From Clostridia bacterium (GTDB lineage: Bacteria > Bacillota > Clostridia > Christensenellales > CAG-138), in contig JAVBWI010000019.1 of the NCBI GenBank assembly GCA_036677445.1, positions 1,535 through 65,534 of the forward strand: a stretch of DNA of 64,000 nt, in the 5' to 3' direction. The notes below the pieces were generated by a model. It was given only the letters and a program-made list of their open reading frames with translations. It was not told the origin of the DNA and did no database searches. Of the stretch, positions 14,769-49,183 are shown in pieces. The position numbers were made by a program, and so were the translations under genes. The number at the start of each line of letters is the position of its first letter. Position 1 is the stretch's first letter.

Positions 14769-16005
14769 ATGGAAACGTGTGAGCGCCGCGGGGCTGCTTA
14801 CGCTCATTATGCTATTCGAGCTGAGCGCTTTTTCCCTTCTGGCGTTCCGGAATCTGACGCTGGATTATACCGCCTTCCTGTTTGGCGGCATACTGGTGGC
14901 GCTGCTGCTGTTCCAGTATATTTCCCTTACCTCCATATTCCGCCATGTGGATCGTTACCTTCTCATCATCGCCAATGTACTGGTGGCCATGGGGCTTATC
15001 GTGCAGTACCGTATCGATCCGGATATCGCCTTCAAACAGGTAATTTGGTTCGGTATAGGCATGCTGGCGATGGTGTTCTGCATACTGTTCATGCGCCGGC
15101 CAAACATATTCCGGCGAATCAACTGGCTGTTGATGGCGGGCGGTCTCGGCGTCTTGGCGGTACTGTTTATAATCGGCAGCGAGGTATACGGCGCGAAGAA
15201 TTGGATTACCATCGCCGGGCAAAAGTTTCAGCCATCGGAATTTGTAAAGGTGGGTACGGTGTTCGTGCTGGCGCACTGGCTGACAAGCTCGCGCCAGGTG
15301 CGCGGCATCTGGCCGCTGCTCGTTTATATCGTGGGCGTTGTGGGGCTCCTGGTCATGGAACGCGACCTGGGCGCGGCGGTGCTCATCGCGGGTACGGCGC
15401 TTATCGTGTTCTATGTGGCGACGGGCAACAAGGCGCTTACGGGGTTGGGGCTTGCGGCGGGCTGCGCGGGCGCTGTGGCGAGCTATTATCTTTTTGACCA
15501 TGTGCGCGTGCGCGTTGCCATCTGGAAGAACCCGTGGGCGACGTATTCGGGCAACGGCTACCAGATCGCGCAGGGCCTGATGGCAATTGCGAGCGGCGGG
15601 CTTTGGGGAATGGGGCTTACGCGCGGCTCACCCAAGCTGATACCAGCCTACCATACGGATTATATTTTCGCCGTCATCTGTGAGGAATTCGGCGTGATCG
15701 TCGGCGTGTGCGTCATCGCGTTTTACCTGGTATTCATCGTACGCGGGGCGCTTATTGCGCTCAATGCGCCGGATCGCTTTACCATGCTGGTGGCGTTTGG
15801 CTGTACGGTGCTGATCACCCTGCAAAGCTTTATCATCATTGCGGGCGTCATCAAGCTGATACCGCTTACAGGCATCACATTGCCGTTTGTAAGCTATGGC
15901 GGCAGTTCCATGATCGGGAGCATGATGCTGCTGGGAATCCTTGAAGGCGTTGCCATACAGGGCGGCGAAACGCTGGAGCGTGCCTTAAAGGAGATGACGG
16001 CATGA
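14761..16005 (+). CDS. FtsW/RodA/SpoVE (SEDS) family peptidoglycan glycosyltransferase
   Basis: ~10-TM protein with SEDS motifs (QPSEFVK, GAAVL, DYIFAVICEEFG, PLTGITLPFVSYGGSS). Its start overlaps the FHA gene stop. Confidence 0.9.
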   Translation: MRRWKRVSAAGLLTLIMLFELSAFSLLAFRNLTLDYTAFLFGGILVALLLFQYISLTSIFRHVDRYLLIIANVLVAMGLIVQYRIDPDIAFKQVIWFGIGMLAMVFCILFMRRPNIFRRINWLLMAGGLGVLAVLFIIGSEVYGAKNWITIAGQKFQPSEFVKVGTVFVLAHWLTSSRQVRGIWPLLVYIVGVVGLLVMERDLGAAVLIAGTALIVFYVATGNKALTGLGLAAGCAGAVASYYLFDHVRVRVAIWKNPWATYSGNGYQIAQGLMAIASGGLWGMGLTRGSPKLIPAYHTDYIFAVICEEFGVIVGVCVIAFYLVFIVRGALIALNAPDRFTMLVAFGCTVLITLQSFIIIAGVIKLIPLTGITLPFVSYGGSSMIGSMMLLGILEGVAIQGGETLERALKEMTA

Positions 16006-17495
16006 ATACGAGGCAGAACATCAAGGGCATGCTCATTATATTCTGCGCGCTGTTCCTGGTGCTGTGCGTGTATCTTGTGTATACCATCAACGCCTATGGC
16101 ACGCGCTGGTTTTCCAGCCCCTACAACTCGCGGCTCAATACGCAGAAGAATAATGTCATCGCGGGGGATATTCTGGACCGTACAGGCAAAGTGCTCGCCA
16201 CCACGGATTCGGACGGGGATCGCGTGTATATCGACGGCAGCTCCGTCCGGCGCGCCACCTCGCATGTCGTGGGAGATAATTATGGCCAGACATTCGGCGC
16301 GGAGAATTTTTACTCAAAATACCTGCTCGGTTTTGATCAGACCATATTTGAACGCGTGTCGCAGGCGATTTCAGGCAAGCAGAGTAACGGCTCGGATGTG
16401 GTGCTCACCATTGACGCGGCGCTTTGCGGTGCCGCCTACGACGCCATGGACGATTATCGCGGTGCGGTGGTGGTGATGAACTATAAAACGGGCGAACTGC
16501 TCGCCTCGGTGAGCCAGCCCACGTTTGACCCCAAATATGTGGCGGATTATTTGAGCGGGGATAAGGCTCTTGACGAAAGCGCCATGGTCAACCGCGTGAC
16601 TGTAGGGCGCTATACGCCCGGCTCCGTATTCAAGATCGTGACCGCGCTCGCCGCCATCCGCTACCTGCCCGGCGTGACGGAGCGTACCTTCACCTGCGCC
16701 GGGCCGCTGGTATTTGATGCGAGGAACGGGAAATATCTCCCCAACGTGCATATCACCGCCGAAGAGGATGTCGCCAATGAAGAAAACGAAGCGGGCATGA
16801 GCGGGGAATACCTCGTGGTGCGGGATTACAATGACGAATACCACGGCGAGTTGGATCTTAAGACCGCGTTTGCCAAATCCTGCAACCATGTGTTCGCGCA
16901 GCTTGCCGTAGAGGTCGGCGCGGACCGGCTGCAGCGGGTTGCAAGGGATTTGGGCATTGGGGACGACTTTCTCTTTGACGATATGGTAACGGCGTCCAGC
17001 AGCTATGAAAAGCCCGGGTCTGATGTGAATCTCGCCTGGTCGGGCGTAGGGCAGTATACGGATTTGATGACGCCGCTGCAAATGTGTATGATCGTGGGCG
17101 GGATTGCGAACGACGGCATAATGATGGAACCCAAGCTGCTGATGTCCGTGCGGAACTCCATTGGCACATCGACTTATCAGTTCAAGACCGAGAGCTACCG
17201 CAAGGCGTTTTCGTCGGCCGAGGCGGCGCAGCTTTCCGAGTTCATGATCAATACGGTGGAAAAGGGTACGGGCCGCAAGGCTGCGGTTTCCGGCTGTACG
17301 GTAGCGGGCAAGACCGGAACGGCGGAGGTTTCTTCCGGCGATGGTGCGCCCAACGCGTGGTTTGCTGGCTTTGTGGAGGATGATGAACATCCGCTTGCAA
17401 TTTGCGTTGTGCTTGAAAAAGGCGGAAGTGGCGGCAGCAACGCTGCGCCGATCGCGGCAAAGGTGTTGAAAAAGGCCATTGCGCTGGGCTATTGA
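16002..17495 (+). CDS. Class B penicillin-binding protein (PBP2/transpeptidase)
   Basis: Signal anchor plus transpeptidase motifs SVFK (SxxK), SCN (AKSCNHVF, the SxN motif) and KTGTAE. ATGA overlap with the SEDS gene. Confidence 0.9.
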   Translation: MNTRQNIKGMLIIFCALFLVLCVYLVYTINAYGTRWFSSPYNSRLNTQKNNVIAGDILDRTGKVLATTDSDGDRVYIDGSSVRRATSHVVGDNYGQTFGAENFYSKYLLGFDQTIFERVSQAISGKQSNGSDVVLTIDAALCGAAYDAMDDYRGAVVVMNYKTGELLASVSQPTFDPKYVADYLSGDKALDESAMVNRVTVGRYTPGSVFKIVTALAAIRYLPGVTERTFTCAGPLVFDARNGKYLPNVHITAEEDVANEENEAGMSGEYLVVRDYNDEYHGELDLKTAFAKSCNHVFAQLAVEVGADRLQRVARDLGIGDDFLFDDMVTASSSYEKPGSDVNLAWSGVGQYTDLMTPLQMCMIVGGIANDGIMMEPKLLMSVRNSIGTSTYQFKTESYRKAFSSAEAAQLSEFMINTVEKGTGRKAAVSGCTVAGKTGTAEVSSGDGAPNAWFAGFVEDDEHPLAICVVLEKGGSGGSNAAPIAAKVLKKAIALGY

Positions 17496-17544
17496 GCGCT
17501 GAACCGGCTGCGTAAAATGATTTTCGGCTTACGGGGCATGCTAA

Positions 17545-18207
17545 ATGCATGTTCCGTTTTTATTTGGAAAAAGAGGAAGGTGGGACCTCTTGCATCTGTT
17601 CTTTATCATCGTGCTCTCGTTGCTGGCGATCATTCTTCTGGCTTTATGGTGGCCGGTACGGTTGGACGTACAGGCGCAGCTGGATATGCCAAGACGCGCG
17701 CAGGTTACCCTGTTTATTCGTTTTTTCAGCGGGCTCGTTCGACTGCGGTACAAGCTGGAGGCCAATCTGCTGAGTGAACCGTCCCTGACACTGCTGCTGT
17801 ATCAGGGAGAGGAAGCGCCGCGCGTGCTGTGGCGGCCGGGCCAAAGCCGCCCGCGCACACAGCGCATGGGCCTGCCCTTCAGGAAGATTTGGCGGCACGT
17901 ACGGCTTAAACGGCTGTGGCTCCTGGGCGAGCTGGGCATACGAGACGACGCGTTCTGGACGGTGATATTTACCGGCACGCTTTGCGCCGCACTGCAGAGC
18001 CTGTTGGTTGCGGCCTGCGCAGGTAAAGAACAGTCTTCTTTGGATGTACGCATACTGCCTGATTTTACCGGAGATCGTCTGCGGCTAAATTTGGAAGGCA
18101 TAGCCGATTGCCCACCGATACATATTATAAGCGCCATAATGATTTGGCATCTCAAGAACAGAAAGGGGCAAGCAACGGTATGGCACATCCTATCGAAAAC
18201 ATCATGA
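17545..18207 (+). CDS. Hypothetical membrane protein, YtfI (DUF2953)-like by position
   Basis: It has an N-terminal TM segment and sits directly upstream of, and overlapping, gerW/ytfJ, like ytfI in Bacillus. The family assignment is by synteny only. Confidence 0.45.
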   Translation: MHVPFLFGKRGRWDLLHLFFIIVLSLLAIILLALWWPVRLDVQAQLDMPRRAQVTLFIRFFSGLVRLRYKLEANLLSEPSLTLLLYQGEEAPRVLWRPGQSRPRTQRMGLPFRKIWRHVRLKRLWLLGELGIRDDAFWTVIFTGTLCAALQSLLVAACAGKEQSSLDVRILPDFTGDRLRLNLEGIADCPPIHIISAIMIWHLKNRKGQATVWHILSKTS

Positions 18208-18635
18208 AGACCACAATGGAACAGCTCAAGGAGATGGTGGACGTCAACACCATCATAGGCGACCCCGTCATGACCGGCGGCGATACGGTCATTGTACCGG
18301 TATCGCGCGTCTGTATGGGGTTCCTTTCCGGCGGCGGCGAATATGGGTCCAAGGCGAAACGGGACGAAAGGGAACCGCAGGAAGAAGGCCGGCACCCGTT
18401 TGCGGGCACGTCCGTCGCGGGCATGAACCTCACGCCTATGGCATTCTTGGCTATCAACGGCGGCGTTGTCCGTGTGCTGCCCGCGCACTACGACTGCACG
18501 CTGGATCGCATCATTGAGATGGTACCCGAAACCATAAGAGAAATCGACCGTATTGTCAAGGAAGCCTGCTCCTGTAAGCAACAGCAGCAAGGGCAGACGG
18601 AGTCGACGAAAAGCGGTTCAGCAGCCGGGGAATAG
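18180..18635 (+). CDS. gerW: Sporulation protein GerW/YtfJ family
   Basis: The N-terminus IENIMKTTMEQLKEMVDVNTIIGDPV......VIVPVSRV..GF..GGGEYG is the characteristic YtfJ/GerW sequence. Confidence 0.85.
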   Translation: MAHPIENIMKTTMEQLKEMVDVNTIIGDPVMTGGDTVIVPVSRVCMGFLSGGGEYGSKAKRDEREPQEEGRHPFAGTSVAGMNLTPMAFLAINGGVVRVLPAHYDCTLDRIIEMVPETIREIDRIVKEACSCKQQQQGQTESTKSGSAAGE

Positions 18636-18663
18636 CGGTGGCTGAGCGTAGCGGGAGAAGTGC

Positions 18664-19782
18664 ATGAAGGGGAGAAGGTTGATCGCTGCGCTGGCCATGC
18701 TATGCGCCTTGTGCTTAGCTATGCCTTGTAAGGCGGTGCAGGCGGAGGTAGGCGCGGCCGGCGCGGTGTTGATGGATGTGCAAACAACACGCGTGCTGTC
18801 CGCGCAGAATGCGCATACGCGGCTGCCCATGGCCAGCACCACAAAAGTCATGACGGCGCTTGTGGCGTTGGAAAACTGCGCGCTTGACGATATCGTAACC
18901 GTGACCAAGGACGCCTACGGCATGGAAGGATCCAGCATGTACCTGAACCTTGGCGAAAAGCTGACCATGGAGGACCTGCTCTATGGCCTTATGCTTTCTT
19001 CCGGAAACGATGCGGCGGTCGCCATCGCAGTACACGTGGGCGGCTCGGTGGAGGGCTTCGCGCAGATGATGAACAATCGGGCGGCTGCGCTTGGCTGCAC
19101 AAACACCAACTTTGTCACACCCAACGGTCTGCATAATGAAAACCACTATACCACGGCATACGATTTGGCGCTCATTGCAAGCGCCGCCATGAGAAACCCC
19201 GCATTCCGTGAGATTGTGGGCACAAAATACAGGCAGACCGCCTCGGGCGATGTCGTACGGACGCTGAAAAACAAAAACAAAATATTGTGGCAATACGAGG
19301 GCGGCAACGGCATTAAAACGGGCTTTACCAAGAATGCGGGCCGGTGCCTTGTGTTTTCGGCGGAACGCAACGGAAGCACGGTCGTCGGCGTCGTGCTTAA
19401 TTGCCCGGATATGTGGAACGCATCCACCAGCCTGCTGGATTTCGCGTTTAAAAACTATTCATGGAAGACGCTTGCCGACACGGGAGAGGTCGTACTTACC
19501 GCGCAAGTTGAAAAAGGCATGAAAAGCAGCTTGGAAATACTCGCCGAAAAGGATATACTGATTCCATTACGCGAAGAGGAGCCGGAGGATGCCGTGGAAC
19601 TGCGGGTGGATTGCCCGCAGCAAGTGGCTGCGCCGGTATTTGCGGGCCAAACAGTGGGGACGCTGGAGGCATGGTGCGACGGCAGGATGCTTGCGTCAAC
19701 GAAGCTGATCGCCGCGGAAACCGTGATGCGTAAGGAATATCCGTACTATTTGTGGCAGCTCGCGCGCGGTTGGGTCGCTTAG
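18664..19782 (+). CDS. D-alanyl-D-alanine carboxypeptidase (PBP5-type serine peptidase S11)
   Basis: Signal peptide plus all three catalytic motifs: ASTTK (SxxK), SSGND (SxN) and KTGFT (KTG). Confidence 0.9.
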   Translation: MKGRRLIAALAMLCALCLAMPCKAVQAEVGAAGAVLMDVQTTRVLSAQNAHTRLPMASTTKVMTALVALENCALDDIVTVTKDAYGMEGSSMYLNLGEKLTMEDLLYGLMLSSGNDAAVAIAVHVGGSVEGFAQMMNNRAAALGCTNTNFVTPNGLHNENHYTTAYDLALIASAAMRNPAFREIVGTKYRQTASGDVVRTLKNKNKILWQYEGGNGIKTGFTKNAGRCLVFSAERNGSTVVGVVLNCPDMWNASTSLLDFAFKNYSWKTLADTGEVVLTAQVEKGMKSSLEILAEKDILIPLREEEPEDAVELRVDCPQQVAAPVFAGQTVGTLEAWCDGRMLASTKLIAAETVMRKEYPYYLWQLARGWVA

Positions 19783-26353: not shown

Positions 26354-27364
26354 ATGTATATTGCGGTGGATGTATTTGGCGGGGACAATGCACCACAGGC
26401 GATACTTGACGGCTGTATGCTGGCGCTTTCACAACATGCGGATATGCGGCTGATACTGGCGGGGGAGATTTCCGTAATTGAAAAATATCTTGCGGAACAT
26501 GCTTGCGATTCCAACCGTATACGTATCAAACATGCGCCGGATGTGATCAGTAGCCACGAACAGCCTACGGTCGCCATCAAACAAAAGAAGGAGTCTTCGC
26601 TGGTGCAAGCGTTGCTTTCTGTTTCGCAAGGCGAGGCGGGCTGCATGGTGTCCGCGGGCAGCACCGGCGCGGTGCTTGCAGGCGCTACGCTGTTGGTACG
26701 CAGGCTAAAGGGCGTCAAACGCCCGGCCTTGGCGCCCATCATGCCTACGCGCACCGGCTGCATACTGCTGGTGGACTGCGGCGCCAATATCGACTGCAAG
26801 CCTAGTTACCTGCAGCAGTTCGCGGTAATGGGTTCAGCGTATATGCAGCATGTCAGGGGCATCGAACGCCCGCGGATAGGGCTGCTCAACAACGGCGCGG
26901 AGGCGGAAAAGGGAAACGAGCTGACGAAGGCCACGTATCCGCTGCTGGAGCGGACACCCGTCAACTTTGTGGGCAACTGCGAAGGGCGCGACGCGCTCTC
27001 CGGAAATTTCGACGTTGTGGTGTGCGACGGTTTTTCCGGCAACGTTTTTCTCAAGAGCACGGAAGGCGCTGCGGAACTGATGGTGCAAATGCTTAAGGAT
27101 GAGCTGACGGCCGATACGCGCTCCAAGCTTGGCGCTGCGCTTGCAAAGCCCGCGTTTCGCCGCTTTAAGAGCCGTATGGATTACACCGAGTACGGCGGCG
27201 CACCGCTTTTGGGCATCAACGGCGGCATCATCAAGGCGCACGGCAGTTCCAACGCCAAAGCGTTCGCGGCGGCGCTGCGGCAGGCGGCGGCGTATATCAA
27301 TGGCAATGTCACAGGGGCGATCGGCGAGGCGATCGCGGCCATGGAGCCGGATGGCCTGGACTAA
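26354..27364 (+). CDS. plsX: Phosphate acyltransferase PlsX
   Basis: MYIAVDVFGGDNAP at the start, and GNVFLK and GAPLLG.NG..IK.HGSS motifs. It sits in rpmF-plsX-acpP synteny. Confidence 0.95.
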   Translation: MYIAVDVFGGDNAPQAILDGCMLALSQHADMRLILAGEISVIEKYLAEHACDSNRIRIKHAPDVISSHEQPTVAIKQKKESSLVQALLSVSQGEAGCMVSAGSTGAVLAGATLLVRRLKGVKRPALAPIMPTRTGCILLVDCGANIDCKPSYLQQFAVMGSAYMQHVRGIERPRIGLLNNGAEAEKGNELTKATYPLLERTPVNFVGNCEGRDALSGNFDVVVCDGFSGNVFLKSTEGAAELMVQMLKDELTADTRSKLGAALAKPAFRRFKSRMDYTEYGGAPLLGINGGIIKAHGSSNAKAFAAALRQAAAYINGNVTGAIGEAIAAMEPDGLD

Positions 27365-40103: not shown

Positions 40104-41126
40104 TTAGTTAATGGGCATTACGGAGCCGCCTTCGCGAAGGTTCGTACCCAGCACCACGTGCCGGTTTTGGCCCTTTCCTTCGATGATATCGATCAACAGG
40201 CCCGCGCTTTGGCTAGCGATGGTATCGGCGGGCTGTTCGAGCGTAGTTAGGGTGGGGATGGTGTATTGGGAAAGCTCCAACCCATCGATGGCGATGACGG
40301 AACGGTCCTCCGGCACGCGGCAGCCGCTGTCCGTAAGCGCCTTCACGGCTGCGATGGCCATTGCGTCGGCGATGGTAAATACGGCGGTGAAGGTGTTATC
40401 CCGTGCAATCAGACGCCGCATGCCTTCATAGGCCGCCGGCATATCGAAGCTGCCGGTACACTCCACCAGCGACGGGACAAGCGGCAAACCGCATTCCTCC
40501 AGCGCCTGCTTATACCCTGCAAAACGCAGTTCGCTGATGGATTTATCGTTTTCGCGTGCAACCAGCGCGGCAATGCGCCTGTGGCCGCATGCGTACAAGC
40601 GCATGACGGCGTCGTGCGCTTCTTTTTTATCGTCCACCGCAATGGAAGAATAGGAGGCGGGGTCAAGGCTGCCGAACGTGTTGGTATAGGTGCAGCACAC
40701 ATAAGGAATATCCAGCCTTGCCGTATCCTCCGGCGTGTAATTGAATCTTCCACCCAAAAACAGTATGCCGAGCAGCTTGCGCTCGGTGGCCAGCATGACG
40801 GCCGTTTTTAACTCGTCGTCATCCGCGTTGATCTGATGCAGCGCCATCGAATAACCGCGCCGGTAAATCTCCTGCTCGACGCCCTTGATGATCCGTGTAA
40901 AGAACGGGTTGGAGACGCCGCGCACCACCAACGCGATGGTATCGGAGCTGGTGCATACAAGATTTCGCGCGCTGTTATTGGGGATGTAGCCGCATTGCTC
41001 AATCACATCCAAAATACGTTTGCGCATGGCGTCGCTGACATCCTGATGATTGTTGAGCACACGCGAAACGGTGCTGACGCTGGCATTGCAAATTCGAGCA
41101 ATATCCTTGATGGTTTGCTGTTTCAA
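40104..41126 (-). CDS. LacI-family transcriptional regulator
   Basis: N-terminal HTH IKDIARICNASVSTVSRVLN followed by a periplasmic-binding-fold sugar sensor domain. Confidence 0.92.
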   Translation of the reverse strand: MKQQTIKDIARICNASVSTVSRVLNNHQDVSDAMRKRILDVIEQCGYIPNNSARNLVCTSSDTIALVVRGVSNPFFTRIIKGVEQEIYRRGYSMALHQINADDDELKTAVMLATERKLLGILFLGGRFNYTPEDTARLDIPYVCCTYTNTFGSLDPASYSSIAVDDKKEAHDAVMRLYACGHRRIAALVARENDKSISELRFAGYKQALEECGLPLVPSLVECTGSFDMPAAYEGMRRLIARDNTFTAVFTIADAMAIAAVKALTDSGCRVPEDRSVIAIDGLELSQYTIPTLTTLEQPADTIASQSAGLLIDIIEGKGQNRHVVLGTNLREGGSVMPIN

Positions 41127-42569: not shown

Positions 42570-43703
42570 ATGCTTCGGCCGACTCATGCGATCATTGATT
42601 TGGATGCACTCAGGCACAACATCCGGTTGTTGCGGGCCAATGTGGGCGATGAAGTAAAGTACATGTCGGTGGTAAAGGCCAATGCGTACGGGCACGGCAT
42701 CGTCGAGATCGGGAAAGTAACAGAGGAATTCGGCGCCGATTATTTGGGCGTGGCTATCCCGGAGGAGGGGAAGCGGCTGCGCGAAGCCGGCATTCACATC
42801 CCGATACTCATACTCGGCGGCATACTGCCTGATGGTGCCGATATGGTTCTCGCCTATGACCTGGCCCCCACGGTATTCACATGTGAAATACTGACTGCGC
42901 TTCAGCTTGCGGCGCAGCGGCAGGGTAAAGTATGCGGCATACACATCAAAATCGATTCCGGTATGAACCGTATCGGCGTAAAGACGGCGGAAGAGTTTGA
43001 AAAGCTGCTGCTGCTGGCGAAAAACAGCCCCAATATCCGCGTGGAAGGTTTGTTTACGCACTTTGCGGTGAGCGAGATACCGGATAAATCCTTTACCATC
43101 GAGCAGAACGACCGCTTTATGGCGTTTGTGCGCATCGCGCAGGAGATGGGCTTTTCGCCGCTCGTACATGCCTGCAACAGCGGCGCGCAGCTGGATATGC
43201 CCGAAGAGCTCAAGCATGCCATGGTGCGCGGCGGCATCGCCATGTATGGCTACCATCCCGGCGCACAATGCGGGCGCTGGGCCGATCTTCGGCCTGTGCT
43301 GACATGGAAGACTGCCGTACTGCACGTAAAAGAAATACAGCCGGGAGAAACCGTGAGCTATGGCAGGCGCTTTACCGCCGCACAGCCGCGTTTGATCGCC
43401 ACGTTGCCCCTGGGGTATGGCGATGGCTATAAGCGCTGCCTTACCAACAAGGCGCAGGTGCTGATCCATGGCCAGCGCGCGCCTATCGTGGGTACGGTGT
43501 GTATGGATCAATGTATGGCGGACGTGACGGATATCGGCGGCGTACGTCCGGGCGACGAGGTGGTGCTCATCGGCAGGCAGGGCAATGAAAACATCAGTGC
43601 GGACGAAATGGCGGGCTGGGCGGATACCATCAGTTATGAGATATTGCTCAGCATCAGCGACCGCGTGCCGCGAATCTATTCGGGCGCAGGGTCGGAACAG
43701 TAA
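42570..43703 (+). CDS. alr: Alanine racemase
   Basis: The PLP-lysine motif VVKANAYGHG and C-terminal YE.L..I..RVPR. GGAGGAAG precedes ATG 42570. Confidence 0.93.
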   Translation: MLRPTHAIIDLDALRHNIRLLRANVGDEVKYMSVVKANAYGHGIVEIGKVTEEFGADYLGVAIPEEGKRLREAGIHIPILILGGILPDGADMVLAYDLAPTVFTCEILTALQLAAQRQGKVCGIHIKIDSGMNRIGVKTAEEFEKLLLLAKNSPNIRVEGLFTHFAVSEIPDKSFTIEQNDRFMAFVRIAQEMGFSPLVHACNSGAQLDMPEELKHAMVRGGIAMYGYHPGAQCGRWADLRPVLTWKTAVLHVKEIQPGETVSYGRRFTAAQPRLIATLPLGYGDGYKRCLTNKAQVLIHGQRAPIVGTVCMDQCMADVTDIGGVRPGDEVVLIGRQGNENISADEMAGWADTISYEILLSISDRVPRIYSGAGSEQ

Positions 43704-43722: not shown

Positions 43723-43978
43723 CTCCGCCCCGGCGTTTTATCGCCGGGGCGGCCAGAGTGTAAAAAAAGTCTTTATGGTTAGCAAACGAGTGCCGCAATA
43801 GGCTTCATTCGCGAGCGGCGACACGTGCGGCGCGAGCGAAAAGCCTTGCGGCGCAAGGCTTTCCTTGCAGGAACCACCGACCGCATCAAAGATGCAGGCG
43901 GTTCCTGTGAAACTCAAAAAAGTGACGCAGTCACTTTTTTGACAGCCTCTCCGCCCAGGCGTTTTATCGCCGGGGCGG
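43723..43978. repeat. Copy A of a ~195-bp multi-hairpin intergenic element, bracketed by a duplicated 30-nt terminator hairpin
   Basis: Direct repeats CTCCGCCC(C/A)GGCGTTTTATCGCCGGGGCGG lie at 43723-43752 and 43949-43978. The core between them carries three consecutive hairpins and is homologous to 48498-48692. Confidence 0.75.
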
Positions 43979-44039
43979 CGTTTGCCTTTAAAGGGTTTTG
44001 TGTACCTGTAACTACATGCAAAGGAAGGCGGAAGAGGAC

Positions 44040-45533
44040 ATGCTGCAAATACTCACGCCCGAACAGTCGCGGCGGCTGGATGTGCATATGATAGGGGAGC
44101 AGGGCATCCCCGGCATCGTGCTGATGGAGCATGCGGCGCTGGGCGTTGTGGAGGCTGTGCTTAGGCTGATGAACCCGCAGGGGCGGGTATGCATACTGTG
44201 TGGCGGCGGCAACAACGGCGGGGACGGCATGGCCGTGCTGCGGCAGCTCATTATGCGCGGCGTATCTGCATCCGCGGTGCTGTTGGCGGGACCGGAACAG
44301 CTTACAGGGGATGCGCTTACGCAGTACCGCATGGCGGCCGTATGCGGCTTGCCCATAACCCTTGCATTGACCGATGAGGCCGTTGAAGCGTTGCATTTCT
44401 CCGATGCGGATGTGCTGGTGGATGCGCTGTTCGGCACGGGCCTTTCCCGCGCGGTACAGGGGCGGTATCTGCGCGCCATTGAGCGCATCAACGACTCCGG
44501 CAAGCCGGTGGTGGCGGTGGATATCCCTTCGGGTGTGGACGGCGCAACGGGGCATGTGCTGGGCGCGGCCGTACAGGCGGCGGTGACCGTGACGTTCCAG
44601 AATAAAAAGCTGGGGCATCTGCTGTTCCCCGGCCGCGAGTATGCCGGCGAGGTGCGCGTTGTGCCTATCGGCCTGCCCGCGCTGCCGCTGGAGGCTGCGC
44701 TGGAGCTGGAGGAATCCGATGTACGCGCGCTGCTGCCGGAACGTCCGTTGGACAGCCACAAAGGGAAAAACGGGCACGCGCTGCTATGTGCGGGCAGCGG
44801 GCAATACGCGGGGGCCGCGCTGCTTGCGGCGAGATCGGCGCTCCGTTCGGGCTGCGGCTTGCTGCATGCTGCGGTGCCGCGGGGTATCCGCGCGGTGTTT
44901 GCGGATTGTCCCGGGGCGATCTGCCATCCCGTAGGCTGCTCGGAGGAATGGCAGGACGCTGCCGCCCAGGAGGCGATTGCGCTGCTGCCAAAGGTACAGG
45001 CCGCGGCCATAGGGCCGGGCATGGGCACAGGCGGGGGAATATCGATATTGCTCGAAGCAGCGCTCAATACCGGCAAGCCACTCATTATCGACGCGGATGG
45101 GCTCAATGCGCTTGCGGCCAATCCGAAGCTTATGCGGCTGCTGCACAAAAACGTATTGCTTACGCCGCATCCGGGAGAGATGGGGCGGCTTACGAACAAA
45201 AGCGTACCGGAAATACTGGATGATCCTGTACGTGTGGCGCGGCAGGCGAGCGGAGCCTGGGGCTGCGTAGTGCTGCTTAAGGGCGCTACGAGCGTCATCG
45301 CACAGGGGGACAGGGTATGCCTTAACGCAACAGGCAACCCCGGCCTGGCCAAGGGCGGCAGCGGCGATGTGTTAACGGGCATACTGCTTGCGCTGCTCGC
45401 ACAGGGGCTTGCGCACTTTGAGGCGGCAAGTGCCGGCGCGTATCTATTAGGCTGTGCGGCGGAGGAAGCATATGCGCTGCTGGGTACGCGCATGCTGCTC
45501 CCCACCGACGTTATCGATGCGCTGGGCAATTGA
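44040..45533 (+). CDS. nnr: Bifunctional NAD(P)H-hydrate epimerase / ADP-dependent dehydratase
   Basis: An N-terminal YjeF_N domain (GGGNNGGDG) and a C-terminal carbohydrate-kinase-like domain (GPGMG, GSGDVLTG). ATG 44040 follows AAGGAAGG...GAGG. Confidence 0.9.
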   Translation: MLQILTPEQSRRLDVHMIGEQGIPGIVLMEHAALGVVEAVLRLMNPQGRVCILCGGGNNGGDGMAVLRQLIMRGVSASAVLLAGPEQLTGDALTQYRMAAVCGLPITLALTDEAVEALHFSDADVLVDALFGTGLSRAVQGRYLRAIERINDSGKPVVAVDIPSGVDGATGHVLGAAVQAAVTVTFQNKKLGHLLFPGREYAGEVRVVPIGLPALPLEAALELEESDVRALLPERPLDSHKGKNGHALLCAGSGQYAGAALLAARSALRSGCGLLHAAVPRGIRAVFADCPGAICHPVGCSEEWQDAAAQEAIALLPKVQAAAIGPGMGTGGGISILLEAALNTGKPLIIDADGLNALAANPKLMRLLHKNVLLTPHPGEMGRLTNKSVPEILDDPVRVARQASGAWGCVVLLKGATSVIAQGDRVCLNATGNPGLAKGGSGDVLTGILLALLAQGLAHFEAASAGAYLLGCAAEEAYALLGTRMLLPTDVIDALGN

Positions 45534-45585
45534 GCCGCCATTGCGGAAGATATTATACAGTGCTATCTGGGCGCTATATGCTTAC

Positions 45586-45619
45586 AAAACGGGCGTGCCG
45601 TAGTCGGCACGCCCGTTTT
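45586..45619. terminator. Bidirectional intrinsic terminator between convergent nnr and the PLP enzyme gene
   Basis: AAAACGGGCGTGCCG-tagt-CGGCACGCCCGTTTT. Confidence 0.85.
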
Positions 45620-45638
45620 GTAAGAGGTAGGAAAACAA

Positions 45639-47114
45639 TTATAAGGTTTCGAGCACGCCCGTCTCCGCGTTGAAGGCATCGATGAGCGCGTCGATTTCTT
45701 TGGCCTGTTTGTGGATGCCGCCCCAGTAGTTGTCGTAATCGTACCACTGCGCGTTGAGCTCTTCGACGGTCTTGCCCTGCTGTTCCACCCAAGTGTAGTA
45801 CTTGAGGTTGTGCACGCGCTTGCGGGCCTCGTAGGTGAGCTCCTCCATCGTATCCGTGCGGATGCCATGCATATGCCCGGCGTAATCCGCGGCGGCCTTT
45901 ACGCTGGAGTATTCGCCGTTCTTCTCTGCCAGTTCCGCCACGCGGGAGCCGTACATCTCGGCGGAATCCGTGCCGACGGTGAAGAGCAGGTCGTTTTCGG
46001 TCAGCTCGTAGTATTTTGCCATCTTGATGCAGCACAGCACGTTGGCGATACCCGAGATGCCGAGCAGAGAGAGCTTTTCTATAAACGCCGGGTCAAGCCC
46101 CAGCTCGCTCACGAGGTACGCGCGGCCGGCCGGTTCGTTGAACAGGCGAAGCAGGTTCTGGCTGTCCTCGTCGTCGATGGCGATGACCATGTCGGTGTTC
46201 TTGACGTTGTGTACCCAGGGCACATGCTTGTCGCCGATGCCTTCGATACGGTGGCCGCCAAAGCCGTTGTTGAGCAGCGTCGGGCACTGCAGCGCTTCGC
46301 CGACGGCGAGCTTCGCATGCGGGTACTGCTCCTTGATGTAATCGCCGCTTGCCATGGTGCCGGCCGAACCGGAGGTGAAGGCCATACCGGCCAGACGGCC
46401 GTTCTCGCCCTTCAATTGCAGGAACGCGTCCTCGATGGCCTTGCCGGTAACGGTATAGTGCCACAGGTGGTTGCCCATCTCGTCAAACTGGTTGAATATC
46501 ACAACATCCTCGCGGGTGTTGCGCAGTTCCCAGGTTTTGTCGAAGATTTCCTTTACGTTGCTCTCGCAGCCGGGGGTGGCGATGACCTCGCCCGCAATCT
46601 TGGAGAGCCATTCAAAGCGCTCGCGGCTCATTTCCGCAGGCAGTATGGCTACGGAATCGCAGGAAAGCAGCTTGGAGTTGTAGGCACCGCCGCGGCAATA
46701 GTTGCCGGTGGAGGGCCATACGGCCTTGTGGTAGGTGGGGTCGAACTGGCCTGTTACCAGGCGGGGCGCCAGGCAGCCAAAAGAAGCGCCTACCTTATGG
46801 CAGCCGGTGGGGAACCATTTGCCTGTCAATACCACGATACGAGCTTTCACGCCGCTGAGCGCGGAAGGAATTTCTAAATAATTCACATCCCCGAATTCGC
46901 CGCCGCTCATCTTGGGCTCGTTGCGCCAGGTGATGCGGAAGAGGTTGAGAGGGCTGATATCCCATAAACCGGTGGTCTTAAGGCCTTTTTTGATCTTTTC
47001 CGGCACTGATTTCGGGTCGCGCATCTGTGCGAACGTAGGGATGACGATTTTGTTTTCGCGGGCTCTTTGAATGGTACGCTGGAGGTTATCTCGATTCACT
47101 GTTAAATCAATCAT
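45639..47114 (-). CDS. PLP-dependent enzyme of the tryptophan-synthase-beta/cysteine-synthase fold (lyase/thiolase-like), function unknown
   Basis: ~491 aa. It has a candidate PLP-lysine segment (FPTGCHKVGASFG), a glycine-rich phosphate loop (FTSGSAGTMASG) and a large C-terminal extension. The start at 47114 follows GGAG. The longer track start at 47231 lacks an RBS. Confidence 0.65.
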   Translation of the reverse strand: MIDLTVNRDNLQRTIQRARENKIVIPTFAQMRDPKSVPEKIKKGLKTTGLWDISPLNLFRITWRNEPKMSGGEFGDVNYLEIPSALSGVKARIVVLTGKWFPTGCHKVGASFGCLAPRLVTGQFDPTYHKAVWPSTGNYCRGGAYNSKLLSCDSVAILPAEMSRERFEWLSKIAGEVIATPGCESNVKEIFDKTWELRNTREDVVIFNQFDEMGNHLWHYTVTGKAIEDAFLQLKGENGRLAGMAFTSGSAGTMASGDYIKEQYPHAKLAVGEALQCPTLLNNGFGGHRIEGIGDKHVPWVHNVKNTDMVIAIDDEDSQNLLRLFNEPAGRAYLVSELGLDPAFIEKLSLLGISGIANVLCCIKMAKYYELTENDLLFTVGTDSAEMYGSRVAELAEKNGEYSSVKAAADYAGHMHGIRTDTMEELTYEARKRVHNLKYYTWVEQQGKTVEELNAQWYDYDNYWGGIHKQAKEIDALIDAFNAETGVLETL

Positions 47115-47392: not shown

Positions 47393-48424
47393 ATGAAGAA
47401 GCTTATTACAATATTGCTCTTGGGAGTATTGCTGTTTTCAGGCATTGCCTGTGCGCCAAAGCAGGAGGAAGTACCCGCGCCCACGCCCGCCCAACAAGTC
47501 AGTCCGCCTGAAGGATTGACGCTTTCGATGCAGCAGGCTACTTATTACTTGGATAGTGCGGAACTGGTGGCAACGTTGATAAACGATACGGAATATACCT
47601 GTACATTCGGCGAGGCATCCTACCTTGAATTGCAAAGCGGCGACGGTTGGCAGCGCGTGCCGTTTAAAGAGGATGTTTATTGGATCGAAATCGCTTACAT
47701 ACTTGGGCCGGGAGAATCCAAAGAAGTCGTCCTGCCGCTCGATCTGTTTGAAGGGCTGGCCCCCGGAACCTACCGGCTGGTGAAAGAGGTATATTGCGAC
47801 GACGGAAGCGAAGAGGGCATTCGGGCAACTGTGTCGGCTGCATTCAATTTGGACGCCGTACCGGCGGAAACGGCTGCTGCAATGAAACCTGTTATCTACC
47901 TTTACCCACAGGAGGAAACAGAGGTAACCGTTCAGCTTGACTTTGACGGCACGCTTACCTGCACCTACCCCGCCTATCGGGAGGGGTGGCATGTACTCGC
48001 GCAGCCGGACGGTACGCTGACGGATATGGAAAACGGGAGTGAATACTCATATCTCTTCTGGGAAGGCGTAAGCGATACGCAATACGATCTTTCGTCGGGC
48101 TTTGTGGTAAAGGGTCCGGATACCATGGCATTTTTACAGGAAAAGCTTGCGTACATGGGCTTAACCCCCAAGGAATACAATGAGTTTATCGTATATTGGC
48201 TCCCCCGCATGCAGGATAACGCCTATAACCTGATCTCCTTCCAGCGGCAGGCTTATACGGAGCATGCGGCGCTTACCGTAAACCCGCAGCCGGACAGCAT
48301 CCTCCGGGTATTTATGGCGTATAAAGCGTTGAATGCACCGGCCAAGGTACCGGAGCAGCGCCTGACACCTTTTATACGTGAAGGGTTTACGGTGGTGGAG
48401 TGGGGAGGAGCGGAAATAGAATAA
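47393..48424 (+). CDS. Hypothetical lipoprotein
   Basis: MKKLITILLLGVLLFSGIAC is a lipobox signal peptide. There are two domains with no motif I can name. Confidence 0.6.
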   Translation: MKKLITILLLGVLLFSGIACAPKQEEVPAPTPAQQVSPPEGLTLSMQQATYYLDSAELVATLINDTEYTCTFGEASYLELQSGDGWQRVPFKEDVYWIEIAYILGPGESKEVVLPLDLFEGLAPGTYRLVKEVYCDDGSEEGIRATVSAAFNLDAVPAETAAAMKPVIYLYPQEETEVTVQLDFDGTLTCTYPAYREGWHVLAQPDGTLTDMENGSEYSYLFWEGVSDTQYDLSSGFVVKGPDTMAFLQEKLAYMGLTPKEYNEFIVYWLPRMQDNAYNLISFQRQAYTEHAALTVNPQPDSILRVFMAYKALNAPAKVPEQRLTPFIREGFTVVEWGGAEIE

Positions 48425-48469: not shown

Positions 48470-48720
48470 AGCAGTCTGTCGTATCCGGCAGGCTGCTCTG
48501 ACTGTTGATAAACCCCTTGGGGATTCGGGGACCGCAGTCCCCGGAGGCTTCCAACCGCCGCCAGCGACATGTGCGGTGGCGGCGGAAAGCCTTGCGACGC
48601 AAGGCTTTCCTTGCAGGAACAACCGCCCGTGCCGCAGGCACAGGTTGTTCCTGTAATTCTCGAAAAAGTGCAAGCACTTTTTCGACAAGCTAAGCAGTCT
48701 GCCATATCCGGCAGGCTGCT
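48470..48720. repeat. Copy B of the ~195-bp multi-hairpin element, bracketed by a duplicated 28-nt hairpin
   Basis: Direct repeats AGCAGTCTG(TCG/CCA)TATCCGGCAGGCTGCT lie at 48470-48497 and 48693-48720. The core is homologous to copy A (GAAAGCCTTGCGnCGCAAGGCTTTCCTTGCAGGAAC...GTTCCTGT...AAAAAGTG....CACTTTTT). Confidence 0.75.
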
Positions 48721-48758
48721 TTGTATGTCGGCTGCTGGAATACTCAAAAAATTGCGTA

Positions 48759-48787
48759 TTGACAGTTATATCGTCTCCCGATATAAT
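48759..48787 (+). promoter_or_regulatory. Consensus sigma-A promoter upstream of padR
   Basis: TTGACA (48759-48764), a 17-nt spacer and TATAAT (48782-48787), about 75 nt upstream of the padR start. Confidence 0.7.
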
Positions 48788-48862: not shown

Positions 48863-49183
48863 ATGCAAGAGAACATCGCTTTGACGGAAGCGGTATTTTA
48901 CATCCTTCTTTCCCTGTATCAACCCATGCATGGGTACGGCATTATGCAGAATGTTGCACAGCTCAGCGGCGGAAGGGTGAACCTGGCCGCAGGTACATTG
49001 TATGGCGCATTAAGCACGTTGCTGGAAAAAGGATGGATACGGCCGCAGACGGCGGAAGAAAACATCAGAAAAAAGGAATACGAAATCACACAGGCAGGGC
49101 GGGCAGCGGTGGAAACAGAGCTTAGCAGGTTGCAGGAACTCATAGAGAACGGCCGGAAGGTTGTGGGGGAGAAACGGATATGA
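48863..49183 (+). CDS. PadR-family transcriptional regulator
   Basis: LTEAVFYILLSLYQPMHGYGIMQ.V......V.L..GTLYGALS.L...GWI is a typical PadR wHTH. GGAGG precedes ATG 48863. Confidence 0.9.
   Translation: MQENIALTEAVFYILLSLYQPMHGYGIMQNVAQLSGGRVNLAAGTLYGALSTLLEKGWIRPQTAEENIRKKEYEITQAGRAAVETELSRLQELIENGRKVVGEKRI

Follow-up and report, generated by a model that had tools for sequence, protein, structure and literature searches.

The 195-nt hairpin repeat between the genes for a Big_14-domain protein and a PadR regulator, here called copy B, is very probably a non-autonomous MITE that either descends from IS1182-family DDE insertion sequences (ISs) of the Oscillospiraceae or has been moved by them. 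The direct repeats that bracket it are the target-site duplication of a pre-existing terminator-like hairpin. An earlier note on this DNA had recorded the bracket and the compensatory changes in the stems, while missing the IS1182-type terminal inverted repeats, the bracket as a target-site duplication and the identity of its stem 3 as an IS subterminal hairpin.

Two copies of the element in the window

The window, by which we mean the whole stretch of 64,000 nt that was analysed, contains exactly two MITE copies according to an element-profile search. Copy B, matched by the profile at E = 1e-52, has the following parts and neighbours.

47393..48424, + strand: upstream gene of copy B, a Big_14-domain protein, whose terminator-like hairpin is the target
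48470..48497, unstranded: left copy of the duplicated target hairpin, AGCAGTCTGTCGTATCCGGCAGGCTGCT, 26/28 identical to 48693-48720
48498..48692, + strand: MITE copy B, B-type subfamily, 195 nt, non-coding
48498..48512, + strand: 5' terminal inverted repeat, CTGACTGTTGATAAA; family consensus CAGGCTGTCGATAAA
48524..48544, + strand: hairpin H0b, CGGGGAC CGCA GTCCCCG (helices 1-2)
48555..48585, + strand: hairpin H1, CCGCCGCCA / TGGCGGCGG, with the conserved loop GCGACATGTGCGG
48586..48610, + strand: hairpin H2, GAAAGCCTTGC..GCAAGGCTTTC, a palindrome of nearly invariant sequence
48614..48653, + strand: hairpin H3 (stem 2 of the earlier note), CAGGAACAACC..GGTTGTTCCTG, with the inner hairpin GTGCC GCA GGCAC
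48660..48685, + strand: hairpin H4 (stem 3 of the earlier note), TCGAAAAAGTG..CACTTTTTCGA, subterminal
48678..48692, + strand: 3' terminal inverted repeat, TTTTTCGACAAGCTA, reverse complement TAGCTTGTCGAAAAA
48693..48720, unstranded: right copy of the duplicated target hairpin, with the original T-rich tail TTTGTATGT next to it, downstream
48863..49183, + strand: downstream gene of copy B, a PadR regulator

The left bracket begins 45 nt past the stop of the Big_14 gene, and the 28-mer corresponds exactly to a 12-bp stem with a 4-nt loop; the spacing of 223 nt between its two copies is as first described. The only ORF over copy B is a 62-aa read-through, the frame of which is not kept in copies with loop indels. 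The two ORFs that had been dismissed as spurious (43825-44091 and 48505-48693) both encode RKALRRKAFLAGTT and do so from reading through the repeat.

The promoter of padR, TTGACA-17-TATAAT (48759-48787), is intact and lies outside the right bracket. At 48729-48765, a 27-nt stretch resembling the A-type H3/H4 junction is followed by TTGACAG, in which TTGACA is the -35 box of padR. A third MITE copy or remnant donating this -35 box was considered and rejected: the element profile gives only E = 1.2 at this site, so that an origin of the padR promoter from a MITE remnant is unsupported.

The second copy, copy A, has an equivalent arrangement.

43723..43753, unstranded: left copy of the target hairpin (the alr terminator), 30/31 identical to 43949-43979
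43754..43948, + strand: MITE copy A, A-type subfamily, 195 nt
43949..43979, unstranded: right copy of the target hairpin, the sole terminator-like call of a simple scan in this stretch

Copy A is flanked by the alanine racemase gene (stop at 43703) upstream and by YjeF/NnrD downstream, both on the + strand. The placement between tandem genes, just after a stop codon, is therefore common to both copies, as had been observed: copy A follows alanine racemase and copy B follows Big_14, each with another + strand gene (YjeF/NnrD or PadR, respectively) next in line. The bracket of copy A is a 31-nt hairpin of a sequence unrelated to that of copy B. The cores of the two elements align, with 79% identity over 107 nt ungapped, and the whole element can be aligned with gaps. 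Both stem swaps reported from this comparison are real. Stem 2 is CAGGAACAACC/GGTTGTTCCTG in copy B and CAGGAACCACC/GGCGGTTCCTG in copy A, with one clean C:G to A:T change; a second position is A:T in copy B and an A.C mismatch in copy A, where the A-type consensus has G:C. Stem 3 is TCGAAAAAGTGC/GCACTTTTTCGA in copy B and TCAAAAAAGTGAC/GTCACTTTTTTGA in copy A, a G:C to A:T change.

A modular repeat family

The genome to which the window belongs (G000) is a 3.4 Mb draft of 27 contigs, 96% complete. Copies or fragments of the element occupy ~60-70 places in it, and 4 of its contigs terminate within a copy. Copy B is 91-96% identical to ~10 other full copies in this genome. The family is modular: short forms measure ~195 nt, long forms, which contain an additional module of ~50 nt, ~240 nt, and composite forms 300-430 nt, alongside numerous truncated mosaics. 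The tips form imperfect terminal inverted repeats (5' CAGsyTGTCGAwAAA / 3' TTTwTCGACArsCTG), ~13/16 complementary in the consensus. The family thus displays inverted-repeat tips, target-site duplications that differ between copies, small size, many copies and no coding capacity, which are the features of a MITE. The complete element is confined to Clostridia-type genomes; matches in other phyla involve the H2 hairpin only, and the H2 sequence found alone elsewhere is a chance terminator-like hairpin.

Composite forms in G000 were observed at C4:378198-378493, C2:73116-73411, C2:118333-118703, C17:151033-151452, C17:32906-33322, C27:110349-110636 and C5:53-365. They carry 100-230 nt of extra hairpin modules, inserted between element positions ~38 and ~43. 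Two composites have hairpin duplications of their own, of 24 nt and 34 nt, and hence moved as units.

In a related genome, G008, a sibling subfamily of >40 copies with 92-97% mutual identity (e.g. L099:741-942) has the same tip-and-five-hairpin layout with all stem sequences different. This suggests a recent burst there, though no IS1182 transposase is assembled in G008.

Comparison of flanks also revealed a second repeat of 130-160 nt, with 72-94% identity and in both orientations, around several truncated MITE copies in G000. This different repeat lies at the following positions.

C13:~14990-15270, C17:~17390-18880, C17:~40940-41100, C17:~84790-84960 and C20:~27010-27240: different repeat of 130-160 nt

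Its recurrence in the flanks means that the genome holds at least one further short repeat family.

Insertion duplicates whole hairpins

The duplication was assessed across the family by an anchored flank-repeat test, in which 1218 mismatched flank pairs served as the null and its 99th percentile as the threshold. This threshold was exceeded by 14/70 copies (0.7 expected), each with a different repeat, the observed values reaching 32 against a null maximum of 8. The two window copies score 22 and 28, and repeats that long occur in 0/1218 mismatched pairs. Eleven of the 14 significant duplications are 22-32 nt long and fold into a hairpin, leaving 0-5 nt beyond the stem; two of these come from other genera. 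A recognisable duplication is kept by only about one fifth of copies. Folding of the flanks extends the pattern: with random intergenic 36-mers as the control, at least one flank falls at or below the 10th percentile of control folding energy in 32/46 copies and both flanks do so in 15 (expected ~9 and 0.5, respectively; p = 5e-19).

An orthologous empty site is available for one relative. In G003, the site is filled by a 174-nt family member with a copy of AAAGCCCCGCCG(C/T)CAGCGGCAGGGC on each side, and the orthologous site in G068 has a single hairpin with the same immediate context on both sides and flanks that are 90-91% identical. For copies A and B themselves, exact-pattern scans of metagenome contigs found no empty allele; three Logan contigs from other assemblies of the strain carry the filled site, broken within the repeat. 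Furthermore, G008 contains an array (L099, G008:C6:30090-31660, at about 381-1200) of four MITE copies, three reverse and one forward, spaced by copies of the hairpin AGGGCTTCCGGCGCTGCCGGAAGCCCT. This looks like repeated insertion into a regenerated target.

The position of copies relative to genes is likewise skewed. With genes called by our own dicodon model, 37% of copies lie between convergent genes against a background of 16%, and 8% between divergent genes against 18% (chi-square p = 2e-5).

Transposon ends point to a probable IS1182-type partner

Candidate partners were sought among 240 sampled genomes from the same bacterial family (Oscillospiraceae), of which 45 contain the DDE_Tnp_1_6 domain; 30 loci were examined. 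Seven of these hold full-length elements of ~1.5 kb with the tips CAGnnnGTC(A/G)A.AAA. In BLAST comparisons, the MITE tips land exactly on the tips of four of the seven (L054, L057, L060 and L061), and the two subfamilies divide between them. B-type tips are like those of L060 and L054: the consensus of the 5' terminal repeat, CAGGCTGTCGATAAA, fits the left tip of L060, CAGGCTGTCGAGAAACCC, and the 3' terminal repeat of copy B fits the tips of L054 and L060 (CAGCTTGTCGAGAAAGT, CAGGCTGTCGAAAAAGT). A-type tips, TGTCAAAAAAGT, are like those of L057 and L061, and the tips of copy A fit both of these elements. The transposases that were scored (L057, L060 and L071-type) match the IS1182 model NF033551 at 379-443 bits, with a cut-off of 270, and those of L057, L060 and L071 carry DUF772, DDE_Tnp_1 and DDE_Tnp_1_6. 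The tip similarity is short, 13-18 nt with single-match E-values of 0.01-0.2, so the link to IS1182 rests on the position of the matches at the tips and on shared behaviour.

This shared behaviour is apparent in several respects. The ISs L061, L068 and L071 themselves lie between duplicated whole hairpins of ~19-28 nt. One genome, G245, holds the matching IS L054 together with at least 30 MITE copies, whose hairpin duplications measure 26-34 nt. At each of the 14 ends of the seven ISs there is a hairpin, beginning 5-12 nt from the tip and overlapping the terminal repeat in part, whose sequence differs by lineage. The 3' end of the MITE shares this tip-plus-hairpin layout; its 5' counterpart, H0a, is short and weak. 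L057 (in G217) and L060 (in G149) each have a strong hairpin on either side, but not the same one left and right; copies may have recombined, the IS may have inserted between two neighbouring hairpins, or there may be a second mode of insertion. Another IS, L041 in G003, was ruled out as a partner, having unrelated 34-nt ends.

Beyond the ends, BLAST of the MITE against the 30 IS1182 loci detected no internal homology, and no transposase was found in the MITE-bearing loci. The H1-H3 core has no counterpart in any IS examined. Searches of the own draft assembly with PF13751, NF033551 and tblastn found no IS1182 transposase, only a DUF772 fragment and a 108-aa piece. These IS5/IS1182-type fragments were observed at G000 C14:156600-156749 and C12:17320-17637, the 108-aa piece being 43% identical to the L071 transposase, and they may be relics of a lost partner. 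Most MITE-rich relatives, which are drafts or MAGs, are also without an IS1182 transposase. ISs are frequently missing from draft and MAG assemblies.

The absence of an IS1182 transposase from the own genome could be taken to mean that another enzyme moves the element, either one of IS30 type, like that of IS1630, or an HUH enzyme (RAYT) acting on a REP/BIME-like repeat, and that the likeness to IS1182 tips is coincidental. A precedent for the former exists in IS1630, for which the account in PMC3317919, citing Calcutt 1999, gives duplication of variable inverted repeats of 16-26 bp. We regard this explanation as very improbable, since, in both subfamilies and at either end of the element, the matches fall exactly at IS1182-type tips, and since G245 holds the IS1182 element together with the MITE. 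Additionally, a profile search of the own genome found no Y1_Tnp/RAYT (PF01797), and the elements are composites of ~195 nt with inverted-repeat tips, not REP units of 20-40 nt. Mobilisation by an IS1182-type enzyme is accordingly the reading that we follow below.

Stems covary across the family

Covariation was evaluated in a MAFFT alignment of 46 non-redundant copies from the own genome and five relatives. Of the 30 pairs predicted by RNAalifold, 23 show compensatory changes. A structure of five hairpins and 55 pairs, drawn up from copy B, was then set against 500 shuffles and against controls in which the partner was slid. Paired cells make up 89.5%, compared with 78% in shuffles and ~40% with the partner slid, in controls that leave phylogenetic dependence in. 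Double-sided changes occur in 39/55 pairs against 23.6 in shuffles, and 260 cells are compensated against 74; with phylogenetic dependence not removed, the observed covariation values were reached by 0/500 shuffles. The covariation first noticed between two copies thus holds in the 46-copy alignment and does not vanish as more copies are added. The stems are kept through compensatory change at the scale of the family and across genera, which bears out the view that the repeat is not a decaying duplication.

The hairpins differ in how they vary. In H0b, 71-81% of cells are paired and double-sided changes affect 7/7 pairs; in H1 they affect 6/8 pairs around the loop GCGACATGTGCGG, which is nearly invariant across genera. 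H2 is 87.5% paired with few changes. H3, present in more than ten complementary versions, has double-sided changes in 10/11 outer and 4/5 inner pairs, and its outer cells are 96.6% paired. The 3' arm of H4 (stem 3) forms part of the terminal repeat, and the covariation of this stem therefore tracks the tips of two IS lineages (TCGACA vs TTGACA). Across genera, the H1-H3 layout is constant while the stem sequences turn over, with the loop GCGACATGTGCGG and the palindrome AAGCCTTGC..GCAAGGCTT nearly invariant.

What maintains this structure is a question separate from mobility. The stems, or at least H1-H3, may be kept for an RNA function, such as stabilising a 3'-UTR, acting as terminator or insulator or serving as a small RNA, in which case the MITE shell would do no more than spread them; such a function concerns solely the cause of structure conservation and is compatible with mobility. 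The strong covariation across genera would fit, as would the near invariance of the H1 loop and the H2 sequence, a fold much more stable than shuffles (RNA z = -12), the location of copies in gene 3' regions where read-through transcripts are likely, and the A-run and T-run flanks of H4, which resemble those of a bidirectional terminator. We nevertheless consider it unlikely. Orientation in tandem contexts is unbiased (22 co-oriented vs 14 anti-oriented, p = 0.24), the ratio of G.T to A.C (90:66) shows no clear strand asymmetry, and the opposite strand as DNA also folds well beyond shuffles (z = -8). Modules are freely gained and lost between copies, and no Rfam family matches: a search of Rfam 15 with copies A and B and four composites yielded no credible match, the only overlap being a chance one with mir-4428 at 28 bits against a gathering threshold of 90. 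The earlier note had proposed selection on the hairpins as RNA or as DNA cruciform or recombination substrates. Of this proposal, the conservation of the stems stands and the direction of a DNA cruciform or recombination substrate was right, whereas the RNA alternative gains no support from the orientation, the mismatch ratio or Rfam.

Compensatory changes can also arise without selection, when intra-strand template switching (quasipalindrome correction) copies a change in one arm into the other. Quasipalindrome correction during replication or repair is an established process. As a cause of the covariation only, it is a real though minor possibility. All structured parts of the element are simple local palindromes, with no long-range or pseudoknotted pairs, and the constraint is symmetrical on both strands. 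The duplicated target hairpins behave in a similar manner, their loops and centres drifting and changing length between the two copies (C25_25690, C26_37410). Self-correction alone, however, leaves unexplained why the same five hairpins stand at the same positions across genera with their stems replaced, as in the G008 sibling subfamily, and why loop and linker sequences are conserved.

A model for insertion and maintenance

In the model that we favour, an IS1182-type MITE, the terminator-like hairpin that follows the Big_14 gene would have been the insertion site of copy B, and repair of staggered target cuts would have duplicated the whole hairpin, giving the order hairpin, element, hairpin. 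The transposase, supplied in trans by an IS1182-type element, would recognise the geometry of a hairpin or cruciform and not its sequence. The 3' ends of the element may be joined at the two 5' bases of the extruded palindrome, by strand transfer at the base of the cruciform. The stagger, and hence the duplication, would then equal the length of the palindrome struck, ~22-34 nt and different for each site. A stagger of palindrome length accounts for the variable, hairpin-length duplications, for insertion in either orientation and for re-targeting.

Within the element, H4, and less clearly the short 5' H0a, would reproduce the tip-plus-subterminal-hairpin architecture of the parent IS. The terminal hairpins are probably part of transposase binding, such that a change in the tip would force a change in the partner arm. 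Two IS lineages that differ in their tips are reflected in the A-type and B-type copies. Hairpins H1-H3 in the interior, which are not IS-derived, are kept palindromic either by selection or by palindrome self-correction. The H1-H3 core could itself be a functional module, consisting of target-mimic hairpins that recruit the hairpin-seeking transposase to an element without the benefit of encoding it in cis, or of an RNA or DNA module useful to the host that permits harmless residence in terminators; both we consider distinctly improbable.

With regard to the host, the downstream hairpin keeps its T-rich tail, and H4, flanked by an A-run and a T-run like a bidirectional terminator, is terminator-like in both directions. 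Termination is therefore probably preserved, and such sites would be cheap for the host.

Relation to known systems

The element is a further example of a known, little-studied kind of transposon, the IS1182-type MITE that duplicates hairpins. What the present analysis adds is a test of covariation across the whole family, the tracing of the A and B subfamilies to two IS lineages, an empty site, an array, and a genome with both IS and MITE.

The closest description concerns ISCbo5/ISBma2-like elements of the IS1182 family in C. botulinum group III and C. novyi-NT, nearly all insertions of which are at gene-end hairpins, presumed to be terminators, with the hairpin 'surrounding' the element (PMC3098183). 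Our element shares with ISCbo5 the IS1182 DDE transposase (here through its tips), insertion at hairpins and gene ends, and a multicopy presence in Clostridia. In contrast, those are autonomous ISs of ~1.5 kb, whereas the MITE is 195 nt long and transposase-less, has an unrelated, hairpin-rich interior, resides in Oscillospiraceae and has no partner visible in its own genome. IS1272/TnSha1 of staphylococci, also of the IS1182 family, targets structure and not sequence; hairpins, often confirmed terminators, are struck repeatedly and in both orientations, with part of the stem-loop reportedly deleted and no target duplication made (PMC4923244, PMC5678879). This partial deletion differs from the duplication of whole hairpins by the MITE. 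IS1630 of Mycoplasma fermentans, described in PMC3317919, is a behavioural analogue only; its transposase is of the IS30 family and its ends are different.

IS1182-derived MITEs are known from Methanosarcina acetivorans, with ISMac2 partners (PMC3852290). Like ours, they are assigned to an IS1182-family partner by their ends; unlike ours, they are archaeal and have duplications of 0-4 bp, and neither hairpin targeting nor conserved internal hairpins are reported for them. REP/BIME, ERIC and Correia-type repeats are similar in being abundant, hairpin-forming and intergenic, sometimes mosaic and often co-transcribed with their neighbours, but differ in their ends, in their enzymes (RAYT for REP) and in making either short duplications of fixed length or none at all.

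These findings account for a conspicuous class of structured intergenic elements of gut Clostridia, those showing compensatory changes, as copies of a transposon and not as regulatory RNAs, a point relevant both to annotation and to RNA-discovery screens that depend on covariation. They also provide a natural data set for the mechanism of IS1182 transposition, with dozens of insertions whose duplications are as long as the hairpin that was struck, in addition to re-targeting arrays, an orthologous empty site and a genome containing both IS and MITE. With the terminator regenerated on both sides, and perhaps a terminator-like hairpin of the element's own added, a transposon can multiply in gene-dense genomes at low cost.

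Elsewhere in the window (45577-45640), the convergent genes for YjeF and a PLP-enzyme have between them a perfect inverted repeat of 20 bp (45581-45600 / 45605-45624). The repeat, whose Rfam match to tpke11 is weak and sub-threshold (28.7 bits vs 43), most likely serves as an ordinary bidirectional terminator; it is also a potential target, unoccupied, of the type that the MITE uses.
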